From an uncultured Eubacteriales bacterium (GTDB lineage: Bacteria > Actinomycetota > Coriobacteriia > Anaerosomatales > PALSA-660), in assembly GCA_964533555.1 (NCBI GenBank), contig CAZHMA010000001.1, positions 1 to 36,046 of the forward strand: a DNA stretch of 36,046 nt, written 5' to 3'. Within the stretch, counting starts at the first letter, position 1; every line of letters starts with the position of its first letter. The position numbers and the translations under genes are program-made. Shown piece by piece: positions 5,312-36,046 of the stretch. The notes below the pieces were generated by a model. It searched no databases and was not told the DNA's origin. It saw nothing but the letters and a program-made list of their open reading frames with translations.

Positions 5312-5315
5312 GCCG

Positions 5316-10973: not shown

Positions 10974-10974
10974 G

Positions 10975-14230: not shown

Positions 14231-14313
14231 CAGACGGTCTCCAGTATCTCGATGCGCAGCTGCGCCCGGGTGCGCCAGGTCGAGCGGGCGGACTCGGGCG
14301 GACGCGACTGTCG

Positions 14314-14727: not shown

Positions 14728-14787
14728 GTGTGTCCCTACCTCCAGTGGTTCCCCGCCGGGCGGCGGGTCGTGTGTCATCGGGCGGTG

Positions 14788-16619: not shown

Positions 16620-16628
16620 GGCGTCATC

Positions 16629-17357: not shown

Positions 17358-17368
17358 GCGCTCGTCGC

Positions 17369-19271: not shown

Positions 19272-19715
19272 CTAGCGCGTCTTGAGCGGCTTCGGGATCG
19301 CGCCCGTGGCGACGTCCTGGGCGTCTGAGATGACCCAGCCGGCGGCGTCTCGTCTCAGCGCGAACAGCGTCGCTGACGCCCACCCGGGGTGCGTCTTGTC
19401 GACGACCCAGACGACCACGACCTCCGCCCGGGCGGTCTCTTCCTTACTGACGTACGGCGCCTGCCATTCGGGGATCGGCGCCACCGTGGTTGTGGAGGCC
19501 TTCGCGGCGTCGGCGAGTGCGGTCGCCACGGCCGACTCCTCGAACCGCGGCGCGTACGAGGCCACGTCCTTGACCTGGTCGCGACGCAGCTCCAGCGCCT
19601 TCTGAACGGTCGCCGCGGCCGGGTCCGTGACCGTGGCCGCGGCACAGCCGGCAAGGGCCAAGACAGCGGCGGCCAACACCACCAGCGCGGATCGTGCGAC
19701 CCACGTCCCGGCCAT
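19272..19715 (-). CDS. small lipoprotein, unknown function
   Basis: The signal peptide has the lipobox LALAGC (MAGTWVARSALVVLAAAVLALAGCAA). The ATG at 19715 shares one base with the ccsA stop (TGATG). Confidence 0.65.
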   Translation of the reverse strand: MAGTWVARSALVVLAAAVLALAGCAAATVTDPAAATVQKALELRRDQVKDVASYAPRFEESAVATALADAAKASTTTVAPIPEWQAPYVSKEETARAEVVVVWVVDKTHPGWASATLFALRRDAAGWVISDAQDVATGAIPKPLKTR

Positions 19716-20554
19716 CAGAACCCCCTCATGTACGCGGCGTGTATCGAGTTGTACAGGATGGGCACCACGGCGAAGGAGAAGACCATGAGCGGCAGTGCCA
19801 AGATGAGGACCCACGCCGAACGCCGGTCGCGCCAGCCCAGTGTGAGCCTCAGGTGCAGATAGAGGGCGTAGACCAACCACACGACGAGCGACCACGTCTC
19901 GATCGCGTCCCAGCCCCAATAGCGGCCCCAGGACTCGTTGGCCCAGATGGCACCCGCAGCGATCATCACGCTCAGGAAGATGAGACCCACCGCCGCGAAC
20001 CGGAACGACAGCTCGTCCACCACCGGCTGGGAAGGCAACTTGTCGAGGAACGGCTTGAGGCGCCCGCCGCCGGATCGATCCCGGATCAGGTATGCCACGG
20101 CCAGCGCGAAGGCGACCACGAACGAGGAGTACGCCAGCCTCGCGAAGAGCACGTGCACCGTGAGCCACCAGCTCGCGAGCATGCCGGTGACGAGCTCGTC
20201 GGACTTGTCCGCAAGCATGGCCGCGCCGAGGCCGAGGAGCGCCACCGGCATGAGCACCATGCCGAGGGGACGGAACACCGGGCGCACGAGTGCCACGACC
20301 AGGAGCATGGCCACTGTGGCGAACGCGTAGGCAGATACGACCTCGTAGAACCCGAGGAACGGGGCGTGCCCGACCCGCACCCAGCGCACGATCGTGCCCG
20401 CCCCGTGCAGCGCCAGGCCGACGCCGGCGATCCAGGTTCCGGCACGCATCAGTCCGGCCCGGACGAACACGCCGCCGGCTATGAACGCCACGCTGGCTGC
20501 GGCGTAGACCAGCACCGTCGCCCACATCAGCACGATCTCGATGGACAGGCTCAT
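19715..20554 (-). CDS. ccsA: cytochrome c biogenesis (system II) haem-handling protein CcsA/ResC
   Basis: WWD motif WGRYWGWDAIETWS, conserved His residues and multiple TM helices. The ATG at 20554 overlaps the resB stop (ATGA). Confidence 0.88.
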   Translation of the reverse strand: MSLSIEIVLMWATVLVYAAASVAFIAGGVFVRAGLMRAGTWIAGVGLALHGAGTIVRWVRVGHAPFLGFYEVVSAYAFATVAMLLVVALVRPVFRPLGMVLMPVALLGLGAAMLADKSDELVTGMLASWWLTVHVLFARLAYSSFVVAFALAVAYLIRDRSGGGRLKPFLDKLPSQPVVDELSFRFAAVGLIFLSVMIAAGAIWANESWGRYWGWDAIETWSLVVWLVYALYLHLRLTLGWRDRRSAWVLILALPLMVFSFAVVPILYNSIHAAYMRGF

Positions 20555-21966
20555 GACGCCTCCTCCGAACCCGCTGCTGCGCGCAAGACCGCCTCGATCC
20601 GTTCGTGGAAGATCGGGTCGCGCCGGGCGTGCCAAACCCTCGCCCGCAGGATCACGGCGCCATCCTCTGTTGCGATGGTGACACCCACACGACGCAGCGG
20701 GGCGAGCACCGCCACGCCCAGACCGCCGACCGCGACCACAAAGATCCCGTATAGGAACGGAACGGACCAATCGTTCGCCACGGAGACGCTGGCCCAGTCC
20801 TTGACCTGAACCAGCCGCAGCCGTTCCCCGCCTGGCAGCGGCACGGTGTCGCCCTCCGCCACGACCGTCGACGTCGACGCACCGGATTCGGGCGTGAGCA
20901 CCTCGACGAGGGCACGGCTGCGTCCCGGCGTTTGAGTCGCGGCGACCGATGACGCTCCCGTGAGCACCTGAAGGCGCACCTCGACGGCGGTGCCCCCGGT
21001 GCTCGACGCCGCAACGAACGACTGCGGAACGGTTCCGCTCTCGGTGCTCGTACTCCGATCCAGGAGGAGCGTGCCGCGGGCGATCTCGCCACCGTACGGT
21101 CGCTCGACCGCGACGACGGCAGCGGGTCCGAAGTCGACCATGTGAACGAGCAGGCTTCCTACCCGAAGCGGGCTGTTGGGATACACGCGACCCGAAGCGA
21201 TCTCGTCTCCGTCGCGCCAAGCCGAGATACGAGGCGCAGCGCCATAGTCGACGTTGCCGACGCGATAGTGGCGGACGATGTCGGTAGCCACCAACTCGAT
21301 GCCCGTGAATCTCGCGCCGAACAGCGGCGACTCAGCGATGCTCCGGTAGTTGGCGCGCTCATCCGCGACGCGCTCGCCCTCTGGAAGGCCCATGACGCCT
21401 TCGGCGCGCGTCGCCTGTCCTGCGGCAGCGACCAGGATCAGGCCGACGATCGCCCAGTGAAAGACGGCGCTGGCCACCGGGCCGGCGCCCCCCGCCCTGC
21501 CGTACGCAAGGCCGTCTCCGCTGTCGACTCGCAGTCTCAGGCGCCGCAGACGGCGGGCCGCGTCGAACAGGACGTCTTCGGCGTCACGGGTATCAGCGAC
21601 CTGTAGCACGATCTGCGCGTGTTCCGTCACATGGCCGGCGAGACCCTCCGGCACTCGTGTCACCGACTGGATGGAGCGGCGCGCACGGACAGTGCGCTCC
21701 GTGGCGCATGCCGCGGTGGACGCGACCAGAAGCGCCATCGTCGCCATGAAGAGCGGCGACGCAAATCCTCTGAACAGGCCGAGCGGTCCGGCGATCGCGG
21801 CGGCAACCGGGTGCGCCGTGGACCATGTCCTCACTGAGGGGTCGGTTGCGGCGCCACGCGGCACCAGTGTGCCGATGACGGCGTAGGCGAGCAGTCCCGT
21901 GATCAGGACCGCCGCGAGGCGCCTGGATCTCAGCGCCCGCACAAGGCGCTTCCACGCCCCTGACAT
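20551..21966 (-). CDS. ccsB: cytochrome c biogenesis (system II) protein ResB/CcsB
   Basis: N-terminus WKRLVRALRSRRLAAVLITGLLAYAVIGTLVP, a large extracytoplasmic loop and a C-terminal TM. It is coupled to ccsA. Confidence 0.8.
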   Translation of the reverse strand: MSGAWKRLVRALRSRRLAAVLITGLLAYAVIGTLVPRGAATDPSVRTWSTAHPVAAAIAGPLGLFRGFASPLFMATMALLVASTAACATERTVRARRSIQSVTRVPEGLAGHVTEHAQIVLQVADTRDAEDVLFDAARRLRRLRLRVDSGDGLAYGRAGGAGPVASAVFHWAIVGLILVAAAGQATRAEGVMGLPEGERVADERANYRSIAESPLFGARFTGIELVATDIVRHYRVGNVDYGAAPRISAWRDGDEIASGRVYPNSPLRVGSLLVHMVDFGPAAVVAVERPYGGEIARGTLLLDRSTSTESGTVPQSFVAASSTGGTAVEVRLQVLTGASSVAATQTPGRSRALVEVLTPESGASTSTVVAEGDTVPLPGGERLRLVQVKDWASVSVANDWSVPFLYGIFVVAVGGLGVAVLAPLRRVGVTIATEDGAVILRARVWHARRDPIFHERIEAVLRAAAGSEEAS

Positions 21967-22487
21967 CAGGGCGTCTCCGGAGCGAGTGTGCCCACCTGGC
22001 TCGCGGGCACGGTAGCCGTCGCACTGATCGCCCTGACGTCGGTCACCTGCCAGGACCCGTCACCGACTCGTGTCAGGTCCCAAGACAGGTCGTAGACCAG
22101 GCCCTCCTGAGTCAGCACCAGCGCGCCCGTCTTGCGGGAGTAGTGCCTGTAGTCCCACGTCTCCCGGGTCTCAGCGAGCGCCGAGGTGCCCTCCACGCTC
22201 ACCTTGACGAATCTGAGGTCGCGCAGCGTCGGGTCCAACCGGACACCCCCCTCCGCGAGCGATGACATGTGTATGTACTCATCCTCCGCCTGAAGCTGGG
22301 ACGCCACTTCGCGCATGCCGTTCATGTTCAGCGAGCGATACCCGTCGGCGAGTATCTCGTCGTAGCGCTGGATCGTGGAGCGGATCGCGCGCTCGTCCGG
22401 GGACAGCGATGAGCAGCCCGCCAGCACGAAGGCGGCAAGCAGCAGCGCGGCCGTGAGTCGCCGGGTGCGAGCGATGACTAGGGTCAT
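21966..22487 (-). CDS. small lipoprotein, unknown function
   Basis: MTLVIARTRRLTAALLLAAFVLAGCSS has the lipobox LAGC. The stop shares one base with the ResB ATG (TGATG). I chose the start at the Met at 22487. The track ORF begins at 22529. Confidence 0.65.
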   Translation of the reverse strand: MTLVIARTRRLTAALLLAAFVLAGCSSLSPDERAIRSTIQRYDEILADGYRSLNMNGMREVASQLQAEDEYIHMSSLAEGGVRLDPTLRDLRFVKVSVEGTSALAETRETWDYRHYSRKTGALVLTQEGLVYDLSWDLTRVGDGSWQVTDVRAISATATVPASQVGTLAPETP

Positions 22488-22562
22488 TTGTTCTACCTCG
22501 TTCACGCCATGGGGCCGCGCGAGCATCATGCCACGCTTGGCGACGAACGCGTCAGTAGGGCG

Positions 22563-25500
22563 CTACCACGACTCGGCGTTGACGTTCGTGGACGACGCCG
22601 AATGCTGCCCACAGCTACGCTGACCGCAGTCGGCGGCCTGCCAGTTGATATCCGCTCGCTTGATGTACCACGTTAGCCAGCCGCCACGGGATCCTTGCGT
22701 TCCGCGGTTGCCCTGGCCATCGGCTGTGTACCGCAGCGGCAGGTTGCCCGGGTAGCCCGTCACGGTCGCGTCCTTGCCGGTTGCGCTCAGAAGTCGAGAT
22801 ACCTTGCCCCCATGTGGGACTCGGATGTGGCAGGCAACGCAAGGCTCGTTGTGGTCGCCGCGGGCGTGGAGATCCTGGCCCGAAGCTGCGCTGTCGATGT
22901 TGTGACAGTTACGGCAGAAGAGGCCGTCCGCGGTGTCCAGACTCGTGTCCCATCCGCTGTAGCCGGTCCCAGCCGCGGCCGTCGATTGCCGGAAGCCGGT
23001 CAGCGCACTCGAGCCGTTAGCCGCCGCGGTACTGTAGGGCCACGCCTGGTTGGGGCCCTTCAACATCCACTTCACGGAGCTCCCGTGTGGTCCGAGCGAG
23101 CCCGCGTTGCTCTCTGCGTGACAATCGGAGCAGTACATGGTGCTGCCGCGCGTCCAACCACCGTAAGAGACGCCCCCGACCGTGAACGCAGGGCGCAGCT
23201 GGGCGGCCTGGCTGAGCTGGCTCGACCCGTTCGCGCCGGGGTCCGTCGCCGGAAGTGCTGCGATGACCGGATGATAGGACTGATTGCTCGTGGAGAACTC
23301 GAGTCCGACATCGGTCCATGCCGTCGAACCCGTGCCGCCCCAGGTGATGAGCGTCGTCTGCCCCTGTGCACTCGTGTTCTGGTTGAATCCTGAGTGGCAT
23401 CGGAAGCAGATCTGATACTCCTTGGTGGCCGGATCGACCGTGGTGTACCCGGTCGGCGAAGTCCAGTTGCCGGTGGCGAGCGTCGGCTCTGCCCCCTGCA
23501 CTCCCTGGAGAGCGCCGGAGACTGCGTTGGTTCCGCGACTGTGACGCGTAGCCTGCGCGGCGTGCACATCGTGGCAATCGGCACACTCGACGTGGCGGTT
23601 GGCGCTCAGGTACGCCCTTGTCTCGTCCGTCGGCGACGGACGATGGATGCCATCGTAGCTGCCGACCAAGTGCGCCCATCCCCCCGAAGACGCCCATGTC
23701 CAGGGGATCGCGGTGGGCGCCCGCAGGTAGCCGGGGGCCGTGGTTCCCCATGAGTAGGTGAGGCCGTAGTTGCCGGCGGTCGTGACCGCGTTGGTCTGCA
23801 CGCCGAGGTCGACGACTATCTTGTCGCCCGGGTTGAGCGTCACAGCCACGCCGTTGGCCGTTGCGAACGTCTGCACCGTACCCGGAACCGCGGTGGTTCC
23901 CATCTCGGTGGTCGCGTATCGTTGCGCAGTCACCACGTCGGTCTTCGTGGCGTTGTCCGCACGCCACACGTATATGTAGTAGAAGACGTACGCGTTGGCG
24001 TTGGCGCTCGACTCGCGGTCAAAGACCGATACGTTCCAGGCACCCGCGGCGACGTTCGTGGTCGATGCCACCGGCGGCGAGACCAGCCGCAGCCTGCGCC
24101 AGTTCTGGGTGCCCGCAGGCACCGCGTACGTCGCGGTATCGAAGCTCTCGACCGCGACCGACGCCGCGCTCGGAGCCATGAGCCGCTGGGTGAACGCTCC
24201 GCTCACGTTGTAGTACGTGACACCCTGGTCGCCGGTCGGCGCGTTGCCGGACACCGATCCGTCGGTATTCGGACGGAAGTAGAGCGTCGCGTTGCTGGTG
24301 GTCGCTTGGGGCGTCCCGAGCTGCATGAGGTCGTAGATGTTCTCGGCCGTGACCGACGTGGCGATCATGTTGTACCAGTCGCGGCCCGCGGTCGCCTTGA
24401 AGCCGTCCGCGCTCTGGCTGTGGCACTTGTAGCAGTTGTCCTCCTCGTGCGGAGGCTCGGTCAGCGCCACGCCCATGGCGGCCAGGATCCGGCGCTGAGC
24501 ACTGTAGTGTGTGCTGAACTTGTTGACGGAGCTCTGGAAGCCGACGGTCTTGGTGCCGACCTCCATGCCGCCGTTGTTCGACTCGTCGTCGTGGCACTTC
24601 ACACAGTTGCCGTTGAACGTGGACGCGTCCGAGCCGAATGTCGAAGGTGCGGTGTAGTCGTGCGCGGAGACGTTGTAGCCGGCCGACGTGATGATCGGCA
24701 GGGTCGTGGAGTTGGTCTCCGCCTTCTGGTCCGCGTTGTCGCGCGTCAGCGCCGTGCTGTGGCAGCTCAGGCAGACGCCGCCGTTCACGTTGTTGTAGTC
24801 GGTGTTGGTGTCGTCCGCTGCGGTCGGCGTCGCGGCGCCGATCGTCGAGCGCAGGTTGCTGGCCCGCGTGTAGGTGCCCACGACGTTCGGGTCGAACAGG
24901 TCGTGGTCGACATGACACGACAGGCAGAAGACCTCCTGGCGGAAGTTCGCGTCGCCGCTCAGGGGATAGGTGAGCGTGTCGCCGCTGCGCGTGGCGTTGC
25001 CCATCACGTGATGGTACGACGAGGCACGGCTCGGGCCGACGGTGGCCAGAACGCTGTCTTCCATGTAGTTCTGGTACACGGTGTGGCACGTGTAGCACGG
25101 GATCTTGCCCTTGGACTCGCCGCCCGTCGGGTTGTGCACGTTGGCCGAGGTCGAGAGGGCGAAGTCATCGCCGTGGCACAGGTAGCACGAGTACGTGGTG
25201 TCGCCGACACGGTGGCCGACATAGGCCGGGAGCTTCAGCACGCCGCCCGTGCGCGAGATGCCGAGTACCTGGTCGGCGGGCAGCGCGACCGTGAAGCCAC
25301 CGGCGCCGTTGTACCCGGCTCCCGTGTCGGAGGTCGTGTGGCAGCTGAAGCAGAAGTTGCGCACGTTGCTGGCGGTCACCTGGCCGAGCGCGGTCATGTT
25401 GAGCTGGCCGGCGGTGGCCCCGACAGTGAGCGAGGCGCCGTTGAGCTGAGTCGGCACGAGGAGCCCGTATCCGTTGCCGGCCCCGTGCGGGTTGTGGCAT

Positions 25501-28500: not shown

Positions 28501-31500
28501 TTGGCCGTGTCCTTCGTGATCGCCGTGGAGTGGCAGCTCACGCACACGCCGTAGGTCCCGCCGGACATGAAGTCGGTGTTGGTGGTCGTGCTGCCCGCCG
28601 CGGCGATGCCGGTGCGCAGGTTCGCGCCCTTCGCCAGGTTGAAGTAGTTGTGGTCGGTGTGGCAGCTGACGCAGAAGACGTCGGTCTTCGAGGTCGGATA
28701 CGGGTCGGTTCCCGGTGCCAGGTCGCCCGTGTAGCTGACCGTGTCCGTGCCCACCACGTGGTGGTACATCGAGGTCTTGGCCGGGCTCGCCGCGTCCATG
28801 GTCTGGTACTGCGCGTGACAGGCGTAGCAGCCGATCGCGCCCGGTGAGACGCCCGGGCCCGGACGGTGGACGTTGTAGCCTTCCACGCCGTAGTCGTTCA
28901 TGTGGCACTGGTAGCAGGACTGCGCGTCCCCCATCGCGTGGCCGTTGACGACCTTGAGGCGCAGCCAGTTGTAGCCGCCGTCCGGCCCGGAGGTCGCCCC
29001 GCCGCCGGCCCGGCCGAGGCCGGCGACCTTCATCGTGTTGTTGACGACCGCGTAGGCGCCGCCGACGCTGTCCCATCCGTAGGGGGTCGCGTCGGAGGTG
29101 GAATGGCAGGTCAGGCAGAAGCGGCGAACGCCCGCGGGCCCGGCCGCCGTGCTCAGGTTGGCCCCGAGCGTGTCGCTGATCATCGAGGCGTTGCCGCGGC
29201 TCGAGCCGTGCGGATTGTGGCACTCGTAGCACGGCAGCGGCGCATTGACGGGCAGCGATGCGTCGATGGACTTGATCCGATGCCCCGAGTTCTCGCCGTT
29301 CTGTGCGCCCAGGTACGTGGCGAAGCTCTTGATGTCCGGCGCGCCCATCCGCTGACCGGTGTCATGGCAGGCGAAGCACGACGCGGCGTAGGTGCCGTTG
29401 GCGCGATCGTCCGCCACGGTGGCCGTGGTCGACGGGCCGTAGGTGGTCAGCAGGCTGTCGTACTTGCTCGGCCCGCGGTGCGCCGCGTGGCAGTAGAGGC
29501 AGTCGCCGTCGACCCGCACGTCCGGCGAAGTGGACGCCGGCATCAGCACGTGCGCGTTCTTCGCGCTGTCGTTGTAGACGCTCGCCCCGGGGAACGTGCC
29601 GAAGACCGGATAGCCCGAGGCGTCACGCGTCGGGGCGGCGAGCGCCGGATACGCGGTCCCGTACTTCTGCACGTACCAGTCCTGCGCGTCGTTGTGGCAG
29701 GCCAGGCACCAGGTGTTGTTCTGCCCGGTCACGTTGTTGCGGGTGACCGAGTTGATGGTGGAACGCCACAGCACCGGCCTGGTCTTGAAGTCCATGTGCG
29801 GGGAGTGGCAGGCGGAGCAGGCGTTGGTCAGGTCGCTCGGAGTCGTCGTGTCGACCAGGCTCTCCAGGGTGTGCCCGCTCCGGAGTGCGAAGGAGTTGGT
29901 GGCGCCGGTCTTGATGTTCGTCGTGGACCCGGATCCGTCGTGGCACGCGTAGCACAATGGGGCTTCGCCGGAGCCCGAGCCGAGCGCCGTGAACAAGCCC
30001 TGGTACGTCGCGGCCACGTGCACCTTGTGGCACGTCTTGCACATGCTGGTCGCGGTGTACGTCGTGTGCGGGGACGGCGTCCACGTGGCGGTGACCGGGC
30101 CGACGGCCGCGGACGGCGCCGACTCGTTCGCTGCCGCGTCGTACGCCGAGACCTTGTAGTAGTAGGCCTGCCCGGTCACGCCGGACGTGTCGGCGAAGGC
30201 CGTCGTGGTGGTCGTGCCGATGGAGGCGTAGGTACCGGCCAGGGTGGTCGAACGCCATACGCGGTAGCCGGTCACGGCCACGTTGTCGGTTGACGCGGTC
30301 CACGTGACGCGCGCGATGGTCGGCTCCGTGACGCCCACGCTCACGGCCACCGAACCCGGGACGGTCGGCGCCGTTGCGTCAACGCCGAAGCCCGTGAAGC
30401 CCTTGGTGGCCAGGACGTTGGCGTTGCCCGCCAGGTCGAGCACGGAGTGGCCGACCCCCGGGTCGATGGTGAGCGTGTACGCCGTGAGGATGCCCTGTGT
30501 GCTCGTCGTCAGGCGCACCGTCTTGTTGTCGGCCTGGAGCACCGCCGCGCTGACCGTGAGGCCGTTGTTCATGGCGAAATCGGAAGCCGCGATGCTGCCG
30601 CTCTGGAGCGCCTCGGAGAAGACCACGTCCACGCTCGTGGCGCTGAGCGCTGTGGCGGACACGATGGTCGGCGGCGTGTTGTCGACCGTGATGCCGGTGC
30701 GCGTGGCGGTGGTGGTGTTCGCCACGTTGTCGATCGCCCGCGCGATGAGGGTGTAGGTCGGGGACCCGTTCTGGCCGGCCGGGCTGAAGGCCCACGACAT
30801 CGTCCAGTCCGCCCACGCGTTGGCGGTGGACGCGGGGTTCCACGTCTGGCCGGCGGCCCATGTGCTGCCGGCGGCGTTCCAGTACCAGTTGTCGCCGCTG
30901 CGCTGGATCGACACCGCGACCGCGCTCACGCCCGAGCCGCCGGTGTCGACGGCCGTACCGGTGACGGTGTACGGCCCGGCGGCCGTGAGCGCCGCGTTGT
31001 TGGCGGCGGGCGCCGTGACCGCGACGGTCGGACCGCTGGCGTCGACCGTGAACGTGTTGCCCGCGACCGCCTGGTTGTCCAGCGCCGTCGCGCCGCTGGA
31101 GACCGAGAAGACGGCGCTGCGCTCGACGGCCCCGTTCGCGGCCGTACCGGAGATCACGTACACGATCCAGTACTTGGTGCCGTCGCTGGCCGGGAAGATC
31201 GGCGCCGGGATCAGCGAGACCACCGAGTCGGTACCCGTGAATGTCCCGGTGCCCATGAGCGTATCGGCCACGGTGTAGACGTTGTCGCCATTGTCCTGGT
31301 AGATGCGCACGCCGCTGACGCCGACCGCGCCTGAGTCACGCACCGTCACGAAGGGGGCGCTGAAGCTGGTGGCGCCCGCCACCCGCGACATGGTGAAGCC
31401 ATCGACCCAGACCATCGCGCCCGGCACGACGTAGGCGGCAGCGGGCTGGTTCACCGACTGCACGCGCAGCTTGGTCCCGAAGCCCGTGAAGGTCGTGGTG

Positions 31501-34097
31501 CTGGCGGCGACGATGGCGTTGCCGGCCGCGTCGGTGACGTTGTTGACGGTGATGGTGTAGAGGGTGCCCGGGTCCTGAGTCGCGACCGTGAGGCGCACCG
31601 TCTTGTTGTCGGCCTGCAGCGCGGCTGCGCTCACGGCCAGGTTCGGCCCCGTGATCGAGTAGTTCGTCGACGTGTTGGCCGTGGCGGCGGTCAGGTTCTC
31701 GGAGAAGAGCACGTCGACGTGCGTCGAGTCGACCGGCGTGGCCGAGACGATGGTCGGCTTGGTGTTGTCGATCGTGATGCCCAGCCAGCCGGCCGAGTTC
31801 GTGTTGCCCACGACGTCGGTGGCCCGGGCGGTGATCACGTACGCAGGGGACCCGTTCTGGTTGGCCGGGTTGAAGGTCCACGAGGCGGTCCAGTTGGCCC
31901 ACGCGTTCGCGGTGGTCGCCGGGTTCCAGGTCTGCGTCGACGTCCACACGCCTCCGGCCTGGTCCCACCAGAGGTTGTCGCCGGTGCGTTGGATGGTGAC
32001 GGCCACCGCACCCACGCCGGAGCGAGCGTCGCCCGAGGTACCGGTCACGCTGTACGGACCGGCCCCGGTGATCACCGCGTTGTTCGCGGCGGGTGCCGTG
32101 ACAGCCACCGTCGGGTTCACGGCGTCGACGGTGAAGATGTTGCCGGCCGTCGCCGGCACGCCGGCCAGCGTGTCGACGTTGGCGGTGGTCATGGCCTGAA
32201 CGAGAGCGGTGGCTGTGGCGCCATCGGTCGCACCCGCGGCGAACGTGTAGACGACGAAGTACGTGCGGAGCGTGGCGTCCACGGCCTCGGCGGCCGTGAG
32301 CGTGACGGGCGCGTCGGTGCCCGTGAAGGTGCCAGATGTGGTGTTGAGCTTGGTGTCCGTGCCGGCGTCGTAGGTGCCGTTGGCGTTGGCGTCCCGATAG
32401 ATGTCGACCGCCGAGACGTTGGTGGCGGGAGCCGTGCCGCCGTTGCGGATCGTGATGGCGCTGACGGTGGACGCCTTGGACCCGCTGCGCTGCATGGTGA
32501 ACGCGTCGACTGCCACGGACTGCGACCGCGCCACGAAGGCCGCGGCGGGGTTGGTCCCGTTGCCCACGGTCACGACTGTGGACGAGTTGCTGATCGTCAC
32601 GCCGGTGATCGAGGCCGAGTTGCCTGTGTGCGCGACCCCGTCAGTGGCGCGGGCGATGATCGTGTAGCTGGGCGTGCCCGTCTGGTTCGCGGGGTTGAAG
32701 TTCCAGGTGTACGACCAGCTGGTGGTTCCCGATGTCACCGGGTTCCATGTCTGGGCGGCCGCCCACGTGCTCGTCCCGCCGTTCCAGTACCAGTTGTCGC
32801 CCGTGCGCTGGATGGAGACGGCCACGGAGGCCACACCCACAGAGTCAGCCGCTGTGCCGGTGATGGTCCCGGGGCTGGCCGTCGTGTACTGGAAGTTAGT
32901 GGTCGGCGCGGTCACGACTGCGGTCGGGTTGTTGACGTCCACGGTGAACGTGTTGCCGGCGGTAGGCGGGACACCAGTCACGTTCGACGTGTTCGTGGTC
33001 ATCGCCACCAACTGAGCCGAAGCCGTGGCGGCATCAGCCGCAGTCGCCGAGAACGTGTAGACGACGAAGTACGTCCGTAGCGTCCCGTCCACTGCCTCGG
33101 CTGCGGTCAGTAGAACGTCCGCGTCTGTACCAGTGAACACACCCGATGTCGTATTGAGCTTGGTGTCAGTGCCGGCGTCGTAGACGCCGTTGGCGTTCGC
33201 GTCCCGGTAGATGTCAACTGCAGCCACCGTGGACGCCGGTGTCGTTCCCGGGTTCCGAACCGTCATAGTCCAAACCTGCGTCGCCTGCGTTCCGACCGTA
33301 CGCTGCAGACGGAAGGAGTCGACGGCGACCGCCTGTGATCGAGCTACGGCGGCACTGGCAATCGCGACCGCGCCGTCCGTCACCGCGACGGTCGAGGTGA
33401 AGGCGGGAGTGTAGTCGACCACGACGTACATCTCGGTGATCGACAGGGTGCCGGTCGTGCCGGTGTCGATTTGGATCCCCGCATTGAGCGTGTTGATGTC
33501 CGCCCACGTCCACGCACCACCGGCCGGACGTGCCGTGCTCGTGATGGAATAGAGGGCGTACGTGTCGGTCAGCGCCTGACCGGTGACCGTAGTTCCATTG
33601 GTCGTGCCAGTCCTCACACGCATACGGGCAGTCGCAGTGTTCCCGGTATCCTTCCGCATGCGGTAGTAGACAGTCACCGAATTGATCGTGCCAGCAATAT
33701 TCGTGTCCACCTGGTCGAGATTCATGTATAGCCAGCTGGCAGCGGTCGTGGTCTGGCCCCTGGTCGCGTCCCCGTCATTGGACCGCAGATCGGTCGTTGC
33801 ACTGCTCGACCATGTCCATGCCGCGTTCGCCGTGTACATGCCCGTGGGATGCAGCGACCACGTCGTAGCGGCGAAGGCCGAGAAGATGTTCGCGCAGGTC
33901 ACGGCCACGAGCACGGCCACCATGACCAGGGCGGTGATCGCCTTGCCGCGCCGGCTCCCCCAGACAGCCCGAAACAGGCTTGCGGGAACCCCGCTCACCG
34001 TATCGGAACGTGCACTACTAGAGGCCTGTGGTGCCGCTCGGTTCAAACGCGTCCTCCCGGCTGCTGCCGTTGGGGCACGGATGCGTCTATCACGCAT
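22563..34097 (-). CDS. giant secreted multihaem c-type cytochrome (3,844 aa, 45 CxxCH motifs) with N-terminal Ig-like/Big_5/FN3 surface modules
   Basis: One uninterrupted ORF. The N-terminus is Sec-type: RRGK, then AITALVMVAVLVAVTCANIFSAFA|ATTW. I hand-counted 45 canonical CxxCH motifs, many of them as CxxCHxxH (the doubled-CXXCH style). Two starts are possible. The ATG at 34097 lies 6 nt after a TAGAAT box, which suggests a leaderless transcript. The TTG at 34046 has GGGAGG 6 nt upstream. Confidence 0.9.
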   Translation of the reverse strand: MRDRRIRAPTAAAGRTRLNRAAPQASSSARSDTVSGVPASLFRAVWGSRRGKAITALVMVAVLVAVTCANIFSAFAATTWSLHPTGMYTANAAWTWSSSATTDLRSNDGDATRGQTTTAASWLYMNLDQVDTNIAGTINSVTVYYRMRKDTGNTATARMRVRTGTTNGTTVTGQALTDTYALYSITSTARPAGGAWTWADINTLNAGIQIDTGTTGTLSITEMYVVVDYTPAFTSTVAVTDGAVAIASAAVARSQAVAVDSFRLQRTVGTQATQVWTMTVRNPGTTPASTVAAVDIYRDANANGVYDAGTDTKLNTTSGVFTGTDADVLLTAAEAVDGTLRTYFVVYTFSATAADAATASAQLVAMTTNTSNVTGVPPTAGNTFTVDVNNPTAVVTAPTTNFQYTTASPGTITGTAADSVGVASVAVSIQRTGDNWYWNGGTSTWAAAQTWNPVTSGTTSWSYTWNFNPANQTGTPSYTIIARATDGVAHTGNSASITGVTISNSSTVVTVGNGTNPAAAFVARSQSVAVDAFTMQRSGSKASTVSAITIRNGGTAPATNVSAVDIYRDANANGTYDAGTDTKLNTTSGTFTGTDAPVTLTAAEAVDATLRTYFVVYTFAAGATDGATATALVQAMTTANVDTLAGVPATAGNIFTVDAVNPTVAVTAPAANNAVITGAGPYSVTGTSGDARSGVGAVAVTIQRTGDNLWWDQAGGVWTSTQTWNPATTANAWANWTASWTFNPANQNGSPAYVITARATDVVGNTNSAGWLGITIDNTKPTIVSATPVDSTHVDVLFSENLTAATANTSTNYSITGPNLAVSAAALQADNKTVRLTVATQDPGTLYTITVNNVTDAAGNAIVAASTTTFTGFGTKLRVQSVNQPAAAYVVPGAMVWVDGFTMSRVAGATSFSAPFVTVRDSGAVGVSGVRIYQDNGDNVYTVADTLMGTGTFTGTDSVVSLIPAPIFPASDGTKYWIVYVISGTAANGAVERSAVFSVSSGATALDNQAVAGNTFTVDASGPTVAVTAPAANNAALTAAGPYTVTGTAVDTGGSGVSAVAVSIQRSGDNWYWNAAGSTWAAGQTWNPASTANAWADWTMSWAFSPAGQNGSPTYTLIARAIDNVANTTTATRTGITVDNTPPTIVSATALSATSVDVVFSEALQSGSIAASDFAMNNGLTVSAAVLQADNKTVRLTTSTQGILTAYTLTIDPGVGHSVLDLAGNANVLATKGFTGFGVDATAPTVPGSVAVSVGVTEPTIARVTWTASTDNVAVTGYRVWRSTTLAGTYASIGTTTTTAFADTSGVTGQAYYYKVSAYDAAANESAPSAAVGPVTATWTPSPHTTYTATSMCKTCHKVHVAATYQGLFTALGSGSGEAPLCYACHDGSGSTTNIKTGATNSFALRSGHTLESLVDTTTPSDLTNACSACHSPHMDFKTRPVLWRSTINSVTRNNVTGQNNTWCLACHNDAQDWYVQKYGTAYPALAAPTRDASGYPVFGTFPGASVYNDSAKNAHVLMPASTSPDVRVDGDCLYCHAAHRGPSKYDSLLTTYGPSTTATVADDRANGTYAASCFACHDTGQRMGAPDIKSFATYLGAQNGENSGHRIKSIDASLPVNAPLPCYECHNPHGSSRGNASMISDTLGANLSTAAGPAGVRRFCLTCHSTSDATPYGWDSVGGAYAVVNNTMKVAGLGRAGGGATSGPDGGYNWLRLKVVNGHAMGDAQSCYQCHMNDYGVEGYNVHRPGPGVSPGAIGCYACHAQYQTMDAASPAKTSMYHHVVGTDTVSYTGDLAPGTDPYPTSKTDVFCVSCHTDHNYFNLAKGANLRTGIAAAGSTTTNTDFMSGGTYGVCVSCHSTAITKDTANQASSANSATADPSTITPVIGGAAFDVSAHDYSVVSSFSVSATFNANCSKCHNDAKAKDYQTSTYRFGTHESSSRRIVAALGATVADPMEEKFCYRCHSRAGELAGGKAGNGFDVYGSAGHAMGAPSEYIYANFEGSMVSTHPLSTGRVECSSCHNPHVTKANNAPTDPDNTLKLAAWTSSDEAALCLKCHDGTTPVAGSTDTTFVPVSVTMVKPDMNKSTNAARGHWSLTGYASLYSATTCLICHDAHGSKAPKLLGDYDGVAKNSQIDGVVVTANDNTVCYACHATSLAPFPVPSLTTSGYPTAGTWPGQGVYTTTYDANGAHTGSFHTTATATWPGKLYPGGDCKNCHDVHGTANTYDELRTENAAGVADQYHYNQADSGFCFNCHDGTPGRDMSAYFPTTVGGTGVQTASTRYGHKTRSAGNLPAGSALPCYDCHNPHGSGSAYGLQVRTMINGNTVAVGATANQIRMSPTDQATAVNVRNYCFVCHTTSDATAQGYNGSAMVANVLATDKVEGISRVTTTTGQVLRLPDVNGHHAADSQSCYVCHGNDYSPTGNNVHNPSGGVSTGGGPCYACHIAYQTNLEDGVAPKIGPGRAASVHHVMGGALGDGDIAPNATLGSYPTSQTDVYCVSCHTDHNYFNATKGANLRTGIAAAGNSTANTDFIAGGTGICVSCHATSLAKQNPGTDQASLGAANTPVIGGAVFDASAHDYTVASSFGTSTFNANCSKCHSDEQTKGFQTSTYRFGTHWSASAGILSALGVFTSNLPHEEACLKCHNATSQPYGAVLPAPANATQAEFAMTSKHDLTKVTCENCHNVHAATAAVPAADPDNIYNTASLTTTATANVYCLKCHDGGLPTQTVNGTTLIPWTVTAGASADVDANYAVDGHGSAAASVSCRTCHEQHGSSLVHLLKTSVNGQSVATYSDTVDEAQCLACHRTGGAAASANIARYYPTGVTGEAVQSVALPGAAGGGGSRYGHRTKTAGTMAAGSAVPCRACHNPHGAGNGYGLLVPTQLNGASLTVGATAGQLNMTALGQVTASNVRNFCFSCHTTSDTGAGYNGAGGFTVALPADQVLGISRTGGVLKLPAYVGHRVGDTTYSCYLCHGDDFALSTSANVHNPTGGESKGKIPCYTCHTVYQNYMEDSVLATVGPSRASSYHHVMGNATRSGDTLTYPLSGDANFRQEVFCLSCHVDHDLFDPNVVGTYTRASNLRSTIGAATPTAADDTNTDYNNVNGGVCLSCHSTALTRDNADQKAETNSTTLPIITSAGYNVSAHDYTAPSTFGSDASTFNGNCVKCHDDESNNGGMEVGTKTVGFQSSVNKFSTHYSAQRRILAAMGVALTEPPHEEDNCYKCHSQSADGFKATAGRDWYNMIATSVTAENIYDLMQLGTPQATTSNATLYFRPNTDGSVSGNAPTGDQGVTYYNVSGAFTQRLMAPSAASVAVESFDTATYAVPAGTQNWRRLRLVSPPVASTTNVAAGAWNVSVFDRESSANANAYVFYYIYVWRADNATKTDVVTAQRYATTEMGTTAVPGTVQTFATANGVAVTLNPGDKIVVDLGVQTNAVTTAGNYGLTYSWGTTAPGYLRAPTAIPWTWASSGGWAHLVGSYDGIHRPSPTDETRAYLSANRHVECADCHDVHAAQATRHSRGTNAVSGALQGVQGAEPTLATGNWTSPTGYTTVDPATKEYQICFRCHSGFNQNTSAQGQTTLITWGGTGSTAWTDVGLEFSTSNQSYHPVIAALPATDPGANGSSQLSQAAQLRPAFTVGGVSYGGWTRGSTMYCSDCHAESNAGSLGPHGSSVKWMLKGPNQAWPYSTAAANGSSALTGFRQSTAAAGTGYSGWDTSLDTADGLFCRNCHNIDSAASGQDLHARGDHNEPCVACHIRVPHGGKVSRLLSATGKDATVTGYPGNLPLRYTADGQGNRGTQGSRGGWLTWYIKRADINWQAADCGQRSCGQHSASSTNVNAESW
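22827..23585 (-). other. C-terminal 5-haem module (residues 3505-3757)
   Basis: Motifs: CADCH (CHDVHAA, the same module-opening pattern as in modules A-C), CFRCH, CSDCH, CRNCH, CVACH. Confidence 0.75.
23586..24419 (-). other. haem-free, beta-rich insertion of about 278 aa (residues 3227-3504)
   Basis: It contains no Cys-x-x-Cys-His. It is rich in T/A/V/G/N with alternating hydrophobic patterns (VFYYIYVWRADN, IVVDLGVQTN), which is consistent with a beta-sandwich. Confidence 0.6.
24420..26060 (-). repeat. haem module C (residues 2680-3226, 12 CxxCH)
   Basis: Motif order: CENCH, CLKCH, CRTCH, CLACH, CRACH, CFSCH, CYLCH, CYTCH, CLSCH, CLSCH, CVKCH, CYKCH. This is a shortened copy of A and B. 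Confidence 0.8.
26061..28052 (-). repeat. haem module B (residues 2016-2679, 14 CxxCH)
   Basis: Motif order: CSSCH, CLKCH, CLICH, CYACH, CKNCH, CFNCH, CYDCH, CFVCH, CYVCH, CYACH, CVSCH, CVSCH, CSKCH, CLKCH. The order and flanking residues match module A. Confidence 0.8.
28053..30041 (-). repeat. haem module A (residues 1353-2015, 14 CxxCH)
   Basis: Motif order: CKTCH, CYACH, CSACH, CLACH, CLYCH, CFACH, CYECH, CLTCH, CYQCH, CYACH, CVSCH, CVSCH, CSKCH, CYRCH. Confidence 0.8.
30093..30374 (-). other. fibronectin type III domain (about residues 1242-1335)
   Basis: APTVPGSVAVS...ARVTWTASTDNVAVTGYRVWRS...YYYKVSAYDAAANES is the canonical bacterial FN3 pattern. Confidence 0.75.
30384..33395 (-). 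repeat. three tandem beta-sandwich/Ig-like modules (about residues 235-1238); modules 2 and 3 end in Big_5/SbsA-type Ig domains
   Basis: The anchor motif (V)DIYRDANANG[VT]YDAGTDTKLNTTSG[VT]FTGTDA occurs at residues 295 and 565. A diverged copy, RIYQDNGDNVYT, is at residue 932. Each module then has FTVD..PTVAVTAPAANN...SIQR[ST]GDNWYWN...TWNP. Modules 2 and 3 add DNT[KP]PTIVSAT...VD[VL][VL]FSE.L...LQADNKTVRLT. Confidence 0.8.
33870..33959 (-). other. signal peptide / N-terminal anchor of the giant cytochrome (about residues 47-76)
   Basis: Positively charged WGSRRGK, a 23-residue hydrophobic core, and an AFA|A cleavage-like site. Confidence 0.6.
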
Positions 34098-34103
34098 GCC
34101 ATT

Positions 34104-34109
34104 ATTCTA
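34104..34109 (-). promoter_or_regulatory. -10-like hexamer TAGAAT immediately upstream of the giant cytochrome ORF
   Basis: The minus strand reads TAGAAT-AATGGC-ATG, within the only clearly AT-richer stretch of the window (34098-34184). The -35 is weak (CTCCCT at 17-nt spacing). Confidence 0.35.
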
Positions 34110-34184
34110 CAGGCTTTGAGCATGAAAGGGAGTGACTTGACGCACTTCACGACATCAATTTCCGCGTTCAGAATGGTTCATCCA

Positions 34185-34793
34185 TTACCGAGCTTCTTCC
34201 AGTAGTCTCTGGGCACGCGGGTACGCGGGAATCAGCTCCAATGCCGCCTTCAGATCCGTGCGTGCTGTCGGGCGGTCGCCGGCCTCCAGACGAGCCTGCG
34301 CAGCGTCGGTCAGCCACCCCGCGCGAAGGTCCCTGCTCGCGTCCGAGCTCCCCAGACGTTCCCATTCGGCGGCGGCGTCCGCCGCGCGCCCCAGGCTCAC
34401 GTACTGCCGCGCGAGCGCGTCGCTATAGGCGGCCGTTGACGGTTCCAGCCTCACAGCTCGGGCCAGGTGGTCGGCCGCCTGCGAGGCCTTCCCCGCCTCG
34501 GCCTCCTTGAGACCCAGCTGGTACCAGCCCTCAGCGTAGCCGGGGCGGTCCCGGGTCACTTGCGTCCAGTACGCCACCGCGCCCGCGAGGTCCGAAGGCA
34601 CCTTGCCCACCGGCGCCGATCCCCACGGGCGCCAACCAGCGGCGACGGCGAAGGCCCCGGCCGCCACGGCCAGCAGGACAAGCGCGATCGCGGCGACCTG
34701 CCACGCACGGATGCCGGCTACGCGACGTCCGACCGGGCGGCGCCCGGCTCGCTTGGCAGGACGGCGGGCAGGCTTCGGCGCGTGGTCGCCCAT
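34185..34793 (-). CDS. membrane-anchored TPR-like protein
   Basis: Arg-rich N-terminus and one TM segment (AWQVAAIALVLLAVAAGAFAVAAG). TPR-like helices follow (GYAEGWYQLGLKEAEAGKASQAADHLARAVRLEP...). The ATG at 34793 lies 2 nt after the NHL gene stop. Confidence 0.7.
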   Translation of the reverse strand: MGDHAPKPARRPAKRAGRRPVGRRVAGIRAWQVAAIALVLLAVAAGAFAVAAGWRPWGSAPVGKVPSDLAGAVAYWTQVTRDRPGYAEGWYQLGLKEAEAGKASQAADHLARAVRLEPSTAAYSDALARQYVSLGRAADAAAEWERLGSSDASRDLRAGWLTDAAQARLEAGDRPTARTDLKAALELIPAYPRAQRLLEEAR

Positions 34794-34795
34794 GG

Positions 34796-35788
34796 CTACT
34801 TCGCGCCAGTCAGGGTGAGCCCCTTGATGGTGCCCGATCCCACGTCGCTGACGAAGAGCTCGCCCGACGCGGCGTCCACGGTGATGCCCTGCGGGGACTC
34901 GATGGTCCCGCCACGGATGGTGGTGGCGCCGATCGTGAGGACGAGCCGGCCGTTCGCGTCGAACTGCAGGATCGCGCGACCGAAGCGATCGCACACGAAC
35001 ACGGTGCCGTCGGGGCCGGCGGCAACGGCGCGCGGCAGCTGCATGCGTGCCTGCAGGGATCCCGCGAGCCCTCCTGACCTGGCATCCAGGATGAGCCCCC
35101 GGCCCGCGTTGGAGTCGGTCACGTACAGCCGGCCACCGGACACGGCCATGCCGCCCACGAAGGTCAGCGGCGGCTCCAGGTCGCTGCCGATGGCTCGCTT
35201 GAACCGCCCGTCGGCGGCGAAGACCTTGATGTCGTGATCGACGCCATCCGCCACGAAGACCTCGCCTTCGGCGACGGTGACGGCCGTGGGCTGCTTCACG
35301 ATGGCGCCCTTGGCCGAACTGCCGAAGACGAGCGGCTTGGCGGGCGACTTCGGATCGATCGCGACGGTGACCACGCGGTTGCCGGCGGTATCGGCGACCA
35401 CAAGGCGATCCGCGTCGAGCACGGCCAGGGCGACCGGGTAGGCCTTGGAGGCCCCGGCGGCCACGGGAACGGTCAGGCGGCCGGCGGCCTCGCCCTCCGG
35501 GGTGAACAGCGCGATGGCGCCGGCGTCCGCCTCCGCCACCGCCAGGACCTTGCCGGTCCACGCGATGCCGAGAGGGCTCGCCAGCGGGACCGCGGGCGAC
35601 AGCGGGAACTCGTCACGCAGGGATGCTGTGCCGGTGGTCTCGACCGAGGGCTCAGTGGCCGGCTGCCGGGGCGCGGGACGACCGACGAGCAGCCACACCA
35701 CGGTGGCCACCGCGGCCAGCAGGATGACGATCGCCACAGCGGTGAGGGTCTTCGGGGAGACTCCCCGACGCGGTCCACGAGCGGGCAA
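34796..35788 (-). CDS. NHL-repeat six-bladed beta-propeller protein with N-terminal TM anchor
   Basis: The TTG at 35788 has GGAGG 5 nt upstream. The TM segment is LTAVAIVILLAAVATVVWLLV. Six repeats follow of the form P.gia.d..g.l.V.D..n.ri..f, for example RLVVADTAGNRVVTV, EVFVADGVDHDIKVF, RLYVTDSNAGRGLIL, TVFVCDRFGRAILQF and ELFVSDVGSGTIKGL. Confidence 0.8.
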   Translation of the reverse strand: MPARGPRRGVSPKTLTAVAIVILLAAVATVVWLLVGRPAPRQPATEPSVETTGTASLRDEFPLSPAVPLASPLGIAWTGKVLAVAEADAGAIALFTPEGEAAGRLTVPVAAGASKAYPVALAVLDADRLVVADTAGNRVVTVAIDPKSPAKPLVFGSSAKGAIVKQPTAVTVAEGEVFVADGVDHDIKVFAADGRFKRAIGSDLEPPLTFVGGMAVSGGRLYVTDSNAGRGLILDARSGGLAGSLQARMQLPRAVAAGPDGTVFVCDRFGRAILQFDANGRLVLTIGATTIRGGTIESPQGITVDAASGELFVSDVGSGTIKGLTLTGAK

Positions 35789-35900
35789 GTGTGCCTCCAG
35801 GGGCGCGGATGGTGCGGGTGCGGTACGGTGCGGCGGCTCGGCAGTGCCGACGCGCTATGTTCCTAGCACGCGACGCGCCAGTCAACGGCGCTGGTGCGGG

Positions 35901-36046
35901 CTACCGCCCCATCGGCGAGCCGTGGCAGAGGATGCAGAAGTCACGGGCGACCTCGATCCGATGACACCTGCAGTCCGGCGGATACTGCCGGTGAGCCGTC
36001 TGCCAGTCCGGCGCGTGGACGCCGCTCCCGTCCGCCTTGAAGCGAT
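35901..36046 (-). CDS. c-type cytochrome, C-terminal fragment (5' part outside the window)
   Basis: The minus-strand frame reads RFKADGSGVHAPDWQTAHRQYPPDCRCHRIEVARDFCILCHGSPMGR*. It has a canonical CxxCH (CILCH) 7 residues from the stop, plus an odd CRCH. It is not in the ORF track because no start lies in the window. Confidence 0.55.
   Translation of the reverse strand, partial: RFKADGSGVHAPDWQTAHRQYPPDCRCHRIEVARDFCILCHGSPMGR

Follow-up and report, generated by a model that had tools for sequence, protein, structure and literature searches.

A System II synthase pair encoded beside a 45-haem cytochrome: a candidate client-linked cassette shared by Coriobacteriia and Thermodesulfobacteriota

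The synthases NrfI and CcsA1 of Wolinella succinogenes are client-dedicated members of System II, the ResB/CcsA route of cytochrome c biogenesis (PMC12285233). In the order Anaerosomatales the cultured Parvivirga hydrogeniphila is an obligate Fe(III) reducer, and this species and Anaerosoma tenue carry 17–18 multihaem genes per genome, some of them clustered with cytochrome c biogenesis genes (PMC9686372). Beta-propeller or NHL proteins, TPR proteins and glycosylation genes are known as companions of extracellular cytochromes in double-membraned bacteria, namely in Desulfovibrio ferrophilus (PMC5815863), in the Uet pathway (PMC10734462) and in the OmcE cluster (bioRxiv 10.1101/2025.10.22.684050). 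Here we describe a locus on contig CAZHMA010000001.1 of an uncultured bacterium, within a stretch of 36,046 nt (∼69% G+C; hereafter the window, to which all coordinates refer), in which a ResB/CcsA pair is encoded downstream of a giant cytochrome of 3,844 residues with 45 haem motifs. We give a probability of roughly 0.55 to the reading that this pair belongs to a specialised System II cassette that serves a single family of secreted multihaem cytochromes, the family being defined by a five-haem C-terminal domain that the giant shares.

Cytochrome, synthase pair and lipoprotein

Four genes form the core of the locus:

22563-34097, minus strand: giant cytochrome, 3,844 aa, 45 CXXCH
21966-22487 (alternative start 22529), minus strand: lipoprotein 1, 173 aa, LAGC lipobox
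20551-21966, minus strand: ResB (CcsB), 471 aa, PF05140 at 8.7e-34
19715-20554, minus strand: CcsA (ResC), 279 aa, PF01578 at 1.8e-35

The lipoprotein 1 and ResB genes overlap in TGATG and the ResB and CcsA genes in ATGA, as described in an initial annotation of this DNA made from its letters only. The gap between the giant and lipoprotein 1 is 33 nt, or 75 nt when measured from the start used by the database protein. That annotation had placed ResB and CcsA directly downstream of the giant; they do lie downstream, but with the lipoprotein 1 gene in between.

All 90 haem-binding cysteines that had been counted in the giant are confirmed, the 45 CXXCH motifs holding 90 of its 93 cysteines. The remaining three are C68 in the signal peptide and a pair in the C-terminal tail, and since every cysteine is thus accounted for, longer CXnCH motifs are ruled out; a pattern scan of the protein likewise found zero CXXCK and zero CX3-4CH motifs. 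The giant divides into five regions:

33861-34097, minus strand (aa 1-79): basic N-terminal region, hydrophobic segment at aa 50-76 and A-F-A/A signal-peptidase-like site
30078-33860, minus strand (aa 80-1340): cysteine-free and haem-free region, putative stalk or adhesin
24411-30077, minus strand (aa 1341-3229): 40 CXXCH, in super-repeats of 14, 12 and 14 haems with MtrC/MtrF domain II/IV-like units
23601-24410, minus strand (aa 3230-3499): haem-free insert, within a 283-residue gap between CXXCH motifs
22563-23600, minus strand (aa 3500-3844): conserved five-haem C-terminal domain

The export signal is of Sec type and not a lipobox, and the conservation of residues past the putative cleavage site (ATTW...) in the homologue of a related locus, L008, suggests that it is cleaved. 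Behind it the haem-free region (25% Ser+Thr, with only four His) consists of a 150-aa N-terminal domain, three Ig-like repeat modules and an FN3 domain. The Ig-like modules are 37–66% identical to one another and match Pfam Big_5, Big_7 and Big_13, and the FnIII domain matches 1k85. This stalk occurs in the homologues of L008 and L005 and is missing from those of L003, L004, L006 and L007, and the haem-free insert has full-length homology in L007 only. The MtrC/MtrF domain II/IV family (PF22113) is matched in nine stretches of the giant (1.6e-55, 187.8 bits), which places pentahaem domains of that family in the protein, while a comparison with solved cytochrome chains, MtrC, OmcA and MtrF included, gave no sequence match at E≤1e-3. 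As to anchoring, the giant contains no LPXTG-like motif by pattern scan and no SLH domain by Pfam.

The C-terminal domain is what the giants have in common. Its 345 residues are 46–59% identical between the window and every giant that is linked to a lipoprotein 1 gene, and the N-terminal parts of these giants vary. A search with the domain alone returned 300 homologous proteins, most of them cytochromes of 450–580 aa; the short cytochromes come from Desulfobulbaceae, Thermodesulfobacteriota, Anaeromyxobacteraceae and Geobacter metagenome-assembled genomes (MAGs) and are 37–47% identical over the full domain. A structure predicted for the domain with AlphaFold2 (AF2) was of moderate quality (pLDDT 71.5) and gave chance-level Foldseek matches only against the PDB, and the sole PDB match of the domain profile was a CXXCH stretch of NrfH.

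Proteins with this domain end in tryptophan almost always. The tail of the window giant reads C-x4-C-x2-H...W-COOH, with C325, C330, H333 and W345 (domain numbering) nearly invariant, and its general form, C-x(3-6)-C-x(1-3)-H-x(6-12)-W-COOH, holds with few exceptions from the Coriobacteriia giants to 450-aa cytochromes of Thermodesulfobacteriota. The tail lies at aa ∼3820–3844 of the giant (22563-22640, minus strand) and is also found at the C-termini of proteins P0098, P0150, P0099 and P0176. Its histidine is not adjacent to the second cysteine, and the tail is therefore unlikely to be a non-canonical haem motif of the NrfI/CcsA1 type.

The synthase pair has the hallmarks of its families. ResB matches PF05140 over aa 16–447 (117.6 bits against a cut-off of 24.6) and has four transmembrane segments (hydrophobic stretches at 16–37, 64–89, 160–186 and 400–427) and a large external loop. 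A transmembrane histidine in an FHW motif is invariant in five aligned ResB proteins and, to judge by its position, is probably the canonical haem-ligand histidine. CcsA matches PF01578 at 123 bits; its WWD motif (WGRYWGWD) and the histidines of LHLR, GH(A/W/G)P and TVHV are conserved in five cassette CcsA proteins, and it gives merely weak cross-matches to CcmF/NrfE and CcmC models. Both proteins are nevertheless divergent, as no NCBIfam model matched ResB and CcsA scores 176.4 bits against TIGR03144, slightly below the equivalog cut-off of 187.6. Paralogous synthases exist in the group: another CcsA gene directly precedes the giant gene of L004, and two ResB-like genes are found in L005.

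No thiol-reducing partner accompanies the pair, as had been noted at the outset: among the likely genes of the window, all of them scanned with Pfam, there is no thioredoxin-like or DsbD/CcdA gene, a scan of the window for WCxxC found none in a coding frame apart from haem motifs, and no ResA or CcdA gene lies inside any related cassette examined. In Bacillus, ResA and CcdA are needed only to reverse oxidation by BdbCD and are dispensable where the BdbCD pathway is absent. That a strict anaerobe should lack these genes beside a synthase is therefore nothing odd by itself.

Lipoprotein 1 matched no Pfam or NCBIfam family and had no sequence-level match to the PDB. An AF2 model built on a 22-sequence alignment (pLDDT 93.8) has helices at 30–52, 56–60 and 64–79 and four long strands, which form an NTF2-like cone behind the lipoprotein signal. 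Residues R83, E109, W111 and Y132 of the protein are invariant. A Foldseek comparison with the PDB gave 40 matches at E≤1e-3, almost all of them NTF2-like; the ARC6/PARC6 intermembrane-space domains and the Tim44 C-terminal domain matched best (E ∼6e-7 to 1e-4), and scytalone dehydratase and ketosteroid-isomerase-like proteins ranked next. The cone of ARC6 binds the C-terminal peptide of PDV2, and that of PARC6 the C-terminal peptide of PDV1. A comparable habit is found in System I, where CcmI and NrfG, both TPR proteins, bind apocytochromes by their C-terminal region (PMC12285233). These analogies and the invariant Trp-COOH tail of the client suggest that lipoprotein 1 may recognise that tail, and we propose that it is either an extracytoplasmic partner of ResB/CcsA or a receptor for the cytochrome.

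Lipoprotein 1 is itself widespread. All organism-named proteins among its 77 database homologues come from Coriobacteriia, Coriobacteriaceae or Actinomycetota MAGs, as do four of the five matches in species-representative genomes. Among 1.84 billion representative proteins, its profile found 669 clusters at 50% identity, 250 of them at E≤1e-10; ten distant members were inspected, of which eight have a lipobox-like cysteine after a hydrophobic N-terminal segment and two are tandem duplications. The names of the MAGs that bear homologues bear out the cell type proposed for this organism, Gram-positive, in that they point to Coriobacteriia. This class consists of single-membraned Actinomycetota.

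Conservation of the cassette across loci

The synteny counts rest on ∼20 loci, to which profile scans for lipoprotein 1 contributed five in GTDB representatives and six on mostly short metagenome contigs. Besides the window there are 16 independent lipoprotein 1 loci (L002–L008, L010–L016, L018 and L021), and in all 16 ResB is part of the same cassette, directly downstream in most; other DNA intervenes in L008 and L013, and lipoprotein 1 follows CcsA in L018 and L021. CcsA comes after ResB wherever the contig extends, L005 excepted. Twelve loci extend far enough to either side for the client to be looked for, and 11 of them have a cytochrome with the C-terminal domain in the cassette; in loci of the Coriobacteriia type these cytochromes have 31–51 motifs. 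Five loci were taken as contexts of the C-terminal domain:

L017: four cytochromes, ResB, CcsA, NHL protein further along
L018: cytochrome, ResB, CcsA, lipoprotein 1 homologue, B12 radical SAM
L019: frameshifted Coriobacteriia-type giant; no cassette nearby
L020: NHL, two cytochromes with the C-terminal domain, radical SAM, PMT (protein mannosyltransferase)-like TPR protein, B12 radical SAM, ResB, CcsA
L021: cytochrome, ResB, CcsA, lipoprotein 1 homologue, further genes, B12 radical SAM

ResB and CcsA lie within a few genes of the cytochrome in four of the five, and three of these four have a B12 radical SAM gene and two a lipoprotein 1 homologue. The synteny holds across Coriobacteriia and Thermodesulfobacteriota with completely different flanking genes. 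The conserved unit is thus a cytochrome with the C-terminal domain together with ResB and CcsA, usually accompanied by the NTF2-like lipoprotein and a B12 radical SAM protein, and it spans single- and double-membraned phyla. The cassette tracks the C-terminal domain and not haem number or the size of a giant, for it accompanies 7–9-haem proteins as well as the giants of 31–51 haems. The co-conservation with cytochrome homologues that the initial annotation had set as a check accordingly holds in related loci for ResB/CcsA and lipoprotein 1. It is partial for the NHL protein (five loci), lipoprotein 2 (two) and the TPR protein (one), and for these it is not general.

B12-binding radical SAM genes of the cassette type are co-conserved in L003, L004, L005, L008, L010, L018, L020 and L021, and were located in or beside the cassette as follows:

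L003, 12819-14045: B12-binding radical SAM
L004, 12859-14169: B12-binding radical SAM
L005, 15861-17198: B12-binding radical SAM
L008, 9115-10458: B12-binding radical SAM
L018, 14003-15511: B12-binding radical SAM
L020, 13358-14671: B12-binding radical SAM
L021, 14586-16088: B12-binding radical SAM

Those of L003, L004 and L005 were scanned against NCBIfam and gave TIGR04013 as the best model, at ∼75 bits against a cut-off of 251. The window has a B12-binding radical SAM gene of another kind, whose membership of the cassette is uncertain:

17369-19147, minus strand: TIGR04190 B12-binding radical SAM, 644 bits against a cut-off of 500

It stands at the cassette end, which is the position of the cassette-type gene in L003, L004, L018 and L021, and its product shares a 90%-identity cluster with a protein of a Coriobacteriia MAG. 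We rejected it as the counterpart of the relatives' gene, the family being different and the similarity remote (E ∼1e-6).

Two of the collected loci are irregular. In L019 the giant (3943-11260) is split into ∼8 overlapping open reading frames (ORFs) in different frames, probably by frameshift error or pseudogenisation. On the "Geobacteraceae bacterium" contig of L010 an AbiEii-like nucleotidyltransferase gene (233-1129, read by eye) precedes the cassette in place of a cytochrome; this cassette comprises a lipoprotein 1 homologue, ResB, CcsA, a radical SAM protein and a PMT-like TPR protein, and its client gene must be elsewhere or lost.

Large polytopic membrane proteins with Wzy_C (O-antigen-ligase-like) or PMT-like regions recur near the cassette, most of them with C-terminal TPR repeats:

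L003, 19700-20537: Wzy_C/PMT-like protein
L004, 18859-20594: Wzy_C/PMT-like protein
L005, 9530-10771: Wzy_C/PMT-like protein
L008, 16475-18631: Wzy_C/PMT-like protein
L010, 5585-7645: Wzy_C/PMT-like protein
L020, 11120-13216: Wzy_C/PMT-like protein

These neighbours and the Ser/Thr-rich stalk of the giant hint that the cytochrome may be glycosylated.

A model for the cassette and competing explanations

A synthase linked to its client is the most economical reading of these observations, given the precedent of NrfI and CcsA1 and the paralogous synthases in the group. The apoprotein would be exported by Sec by way of its N-terminal signal sequence; CcsA, with its WWD motif and histidine ligands, and ResB would then deliver haem in reduced form to the membrane's outer face, where thioether bonds would be formed at each CXXCH. 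Lipoprotein 1, as an outer-leaflet NTF2-like cone coupled translationally to ResB, could serve as an accessory that keeps the client at the synthase by its C-terminal domain or tail, or it could instead anchor the finished cytochrome to the membrane. The Ig-like/FN3 stalk and the three repeats of 12–14 haems would make a long chain of haems within the cell wall or reaching past it, and the mature giant would hand respiratory electrons to an external acceptor, for example an Fe(III) mineral. The NHL propeller, the TPR protein and lipoprotein 2 might be looser assembly or scaffold partners. We infer the dedication of the synthase to its client, the role of lipoprotein 1, and the direction and purpose of electron flow. 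An outward electron conduit, and so a part in extracellular electron transfer, is suggested by the size and haem density of the giant, by its export signal and stalk, and by the physiology of the cultured member of the class.

The dedicated module for maturation and display that had been proposed for this locus survives in part: ResB/CcsA and lipoprotein 1 are co-conserved with the cytochrome, but the module is neither an invention of Gram-positive cells nor specific to giants, since it serves cytochromes of 450–580 aa in Thermodesulfobacteriota and on low-GC contigs. To call the locus self-contained was too strong, for no quinol dehydrogenase is identified in it, relatives have extra partners (the B12 radical SAM and Wzy_C/PMT-TPR proteins) and L019 has no cassette. 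The absence of a porin component, by contrast with these claims, is upheld, there being no porin or MtrA-like gene in the window. A wider proposal can be entertained tentatively, and we hold it to be well short of an even chance. It takes ResB/CcsA, the NTF2-like lipoprotein and usually the B12 radical SAM as an undescribed cross-phylum assembly cassette that serves cytochromes sharing the five-haem domain with its invariant tail; the lipoprotein would bind the tail and either load the client or tether the wire, the radical SAM protein, in cassettes that have one, would modify protein or haem, and Coriobacteria would have fused repeats onto an ancestral module to obtain wall-spanning wires of 31–51 haems.

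Several observations weigh against a client-linked synthase and an outward conduit. All 45 motifs of the giant are canonical CXXCH, so that there is no obvious chemical need for a dedicated synthase, and the 36 kb of genome in view show no second, housekeeping ResB/CcsA pair. The window, like L002, lacks the cassette-type B12 radical SAM gene that most relatives have; L017 and L020 carry the cassette without lipoprotein 1, which is therefore not obligatory; and the related giant of L019 has no lipoprotein 1, ResB or CcsA beside it. No quinol dehydrogenase or intermediate carrier was identified in the window, and if the giant were held by an N-terminal anchor its haem region would lie far from the membrane.

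Part of this bears on an alternative in which the organism's sole ResB/CcsA pair stands beside a heavily expressed client by chance or co-regulation and the lipoproteins, the NHL protein and the TPR protein are unrelated envelope proteins. Such a housekeeping pair would be at ease with canonical motifs only and with the weak conservation of the TPR protein and lipoprotein 2, and the cassettes examined, having no ResA or CcdA, cannot be complete stand-alone systems. Against it speak the synteny of lipoprotein 1, ResB, CcsA and cytochrome across Coriobacteriia and Thermodesulfobacteriota despite differing flanks, the second CcsA gene in L004, the two ResB-like genes in L005 and the divergence of both synthase proteins from their family models; we regard it as distinctly improbable. 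The near-invariance of C325, C330, H333 and W345 across phyla raises a different idea, that the client hides a non-canonical site, either in the C-x(3-6)-C-x(1-3)-H tail itself or at a residue that the radical SAM protein modifies, and that this site needs a motif-specific synthase. NrfI (CXXCK) and CcsA1 (CX15CH) make such System II synthases an established precedent (PMC12285233), and a site of this kind would be in keeping with a cassette that follows the C-terminal domain and not haem number and with the co-conservation of the B12 radical SAM in eight loci. Known haem c sites, however, have their histidine right after the second cysteine, whereas here one to three residues stand between and the Cys-Cys spacing is variable; this spacing better fits a disulfide loop and a distal histidine ligand, and the window and L002 possess the cassette without the cassette-type radical SAM. 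A hidden site is unlikely in our estimation.

The cassette might also be as we describe it while the cytochrome does another job, as an electron-uptake wire (from Fe(II), a cathode or a partner cell), a redox capacitor, a redox-active adhesin or a surface-layer component. Large Ig-like/FN3 regions are typical of adhesins, NHL partners are reported in the electron-uptake systems of Desulfovibrio ferrophilus (PMC5815863) and the Uet pathway (PMC10734462), and the direction of electron flow is not readable from sequence. The window, though, has no feature that would single out uptake, and the cultured class member with multihaem clusters reduces Fe(III) (PMC9686372). We think such other roles rather doubtful and retain the outward conduit, matured by a client-linked synthase, as the preferred reading.

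Neighbouring genes and described systems

Four further genes on the same strand flank the core:

35901-36046, minus strand: 3' end of an upstream ORF, 47 codons plus stop, cut by the window edge
34796-35788, minus strand: NHL-repeat beta-propeller protein, 330 aa, TTG start preceded by GGAGG, Pfam NHL at 1.7e-19
34185-34793, minus strand: membrane-anchored TPR protein, 202 aa, generic TPR families, TPR_2 at 4.3e-06
19272-19715, minus strand: lipoprotein 2, 147 aa, LAGC lipobox, no family matches

That all eight genes are co-directional is correct but not special, as a minus-strand run covers nearly the whole window. The remaining close junctions are likewise as first described, with a 2-nt gap between the NHL and TPR genes (TAG CC ATG) and a TGATG overlap between CcsA and lipoprotein 2. 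Wider gaps separate the edge fragment from the NHL gene (112 nt) and the TPR gene from the giant (87 nt). The latter spacer (34098-34184, minus strand) is relatively AT-rich and contains one candidate element:

34104-34109, minus strand: TAGAAT hexamer, candidate -10 box, 6 nt before the giant ATG, with no Shine-Dalgarno sequence

The hexamer and the missing Shine-Dalgarno sequence would be compatible with a separate, leaderless transcript of the giant gene. Around TAGAAT and the giant start a scan for consensus promoters returned no match, promoter and terminator scans gave numbers at or below shuffle expectation, and an Rfam scan gave no matches.

The NHL protein has an N-terminal transmembrane anchor (hydrophobic segment at ∼aa 9–40), and homologues occur near the cassette in L002, L003, L004, L017 and L020, those of L003 and L004 being proteins of 1,300–1,700 aa. 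The TPR protein, with a transmembrane segment at ∼aa 25–56, has a clear homologue in L002 only (E 4.6e-09). Its suggested analogy to CcmI is not borne out, since it matches generic TPR models at E≤0.01 and not the CcmH/CycH TPR family PF23914. That family is approached, below threshold (33 bits against a cut-off of 42), only by the unrelated PMT-like TPR protein of L010, and the window contains no CcmF or CcmH gene that would associate the locus with System I. Lipoprotein 2 is fast-evolving; it has no family in Pfam or NCBIfam, five database homologues by word-index search, and homologues in two of the collected loci, L002 and L004, at differing positions in the neighbourhood. The edge fragment had been called a cytochrome c fragment, and its 47 residues do contain one CXXCH (CILCH), but the second motif, CRCH, is a CXCH. 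It may be the end of a cytochrome c on the strength of that one motif, and no homologue of it was detectable in any fetched locus or protein.

The genes farther downstream touch on electron entry at one point. The region 15258-19147 (minus strand), immediately beyond the cassette, encodes the TIGR04190 radical SAM protein, a UbiE/MenG demethylmenaquinone methyltransferase and a deaminase-group amidohydrolase whose matches include 5'-deoxyadenosine and aminofutalosine deaminases. These three may form a quinone-modification unit, and the UbiE/MenG gene, two genes downstream of the cassette, is the only clue in the window to how electrons enter.

Another small TPR protein with a membrane anchor, of ∼235 aa, is encoded at 13538-14245 (minus strand), five genes beyond the cassette. 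The longer ORF at 13538-15223 was considered as a 561-aa Wzy-like protein and rejected, its last 235 codons alone being plausible by their transmembrane segment, TPR repeats and codon-position GC; a separate ORF with high GC3 lies at 14314-14778. Between 11370 and 13437 two STAS-domain genes on opposite strands (12566-12904, minus; 13078-13437, plus) stand beside tatA (12172-12564) and a tatC ORF in which the TatC domain begins at residue 141. At 2399-5311 (minus strand) genes for fumarate hydratase of the alpha type (4472-5311) and the beta type (2399-3031) appear to have between them an MFS transporter ORF (2946-4553) whose ends run into both. Such an order is unusual and may stem from starts that were called wrongly.

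The insertion of haem by the dozen into one polypeptide and the retention of the product at the surface of thick-walled cells are poorly understood processes, and few Gram-positive conduits have been studied. The locus offers a testable parts list in the form of a client domain, a specialised synthase pair and a small lipoprotein with a confident fold, and the list recurs in sulfate-reducer lineages, in lineages related to Geobacter, and in uncultured Coriobacteriia, which are common in metagenomes of the subsurface and of sediments. Should the lipoprotein and the synthase prove client-specific, they would represent a new accessory class for cytochrome c biogenesis and could ease the heterologous production of very large multihaem wires; should they not, the locus is still a clear, though ordinary, example of a 45-haem protein in Actinomycetota.

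That multihaem and biogenesis genes cluster in Anaerosomatales has been reported without a closer analysis, and we found no description in the literature of ResB/CcsA combined with the C-terminal domain, the NTF2-like lipoprotein and a B12 radical SAM (or NHL) protein. The cultured Anaerosomatales belong to the same class as the window, yet the account of their clusters describes no 45-haem protein, C-terminal domain, lipoprotein or cross-phylum cassette (PMC9686372). OcwA of Thermincola potens and the S-layer undecahaem cytochrome OmhA of Carboxydothermus ferrireducens (6QVM) are, like the giant, secreted multihaem proteins proposed as porin-free conduits that take electrons across a thick cell wall or past it. 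The giant is far larger than these, has an Ig-like stalk and lacks SLH and LPXTG, and 6QVM came up only as a fold match at chance level (E 9.7). With the decahaem cytochromes MtrC and OmcA it shares the pentahaem II/IV domains, but not the four-domain architecture, the beta-barrel domains I and III, the lipoprotein anchor or the MtrAB partners. The likeness of lipoprotein 1 to ARC6/PARC6 and Tim44 (E ∼6e-7, TM-score 0.7–0.78 on target) is that of membrane-tethered cones with 10–18% identity, in proteins of unrelated biology (plastid division and mitochondrial import).

The OmcE cluster, the Uet genes (UetHI and UetB) and the D. ferrophilus loci resemble the present one in having NHL-type propellers and TPR proteins beside cytochromes, and relatives of the window have Wzy_C/PMT-like TPR proteins in addition. 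Those systems use a beta-barrel porin and propeller lipoproteins, whereas here the propeller is anchored by a transmembrane segment, there is no porin, and the synthase pair lies inside the cluster. The comparison with NrfI and CcsA1 is the closest in terms of maturation, as both arrangements encode a ResB/CcsA-type synthase beside its presumed client, nrfI being part of nrfHAIJ (PMC12285233). In the window, however, ResB and CcsA are separate genes and not a fusion, the client has no evident non-canonical haem motif, and neither ResA nor CcdA is adjacent; a translationally coupled NTF2-like lipoprotein is interposed instead, and most relatives add a B12 radical SAM.

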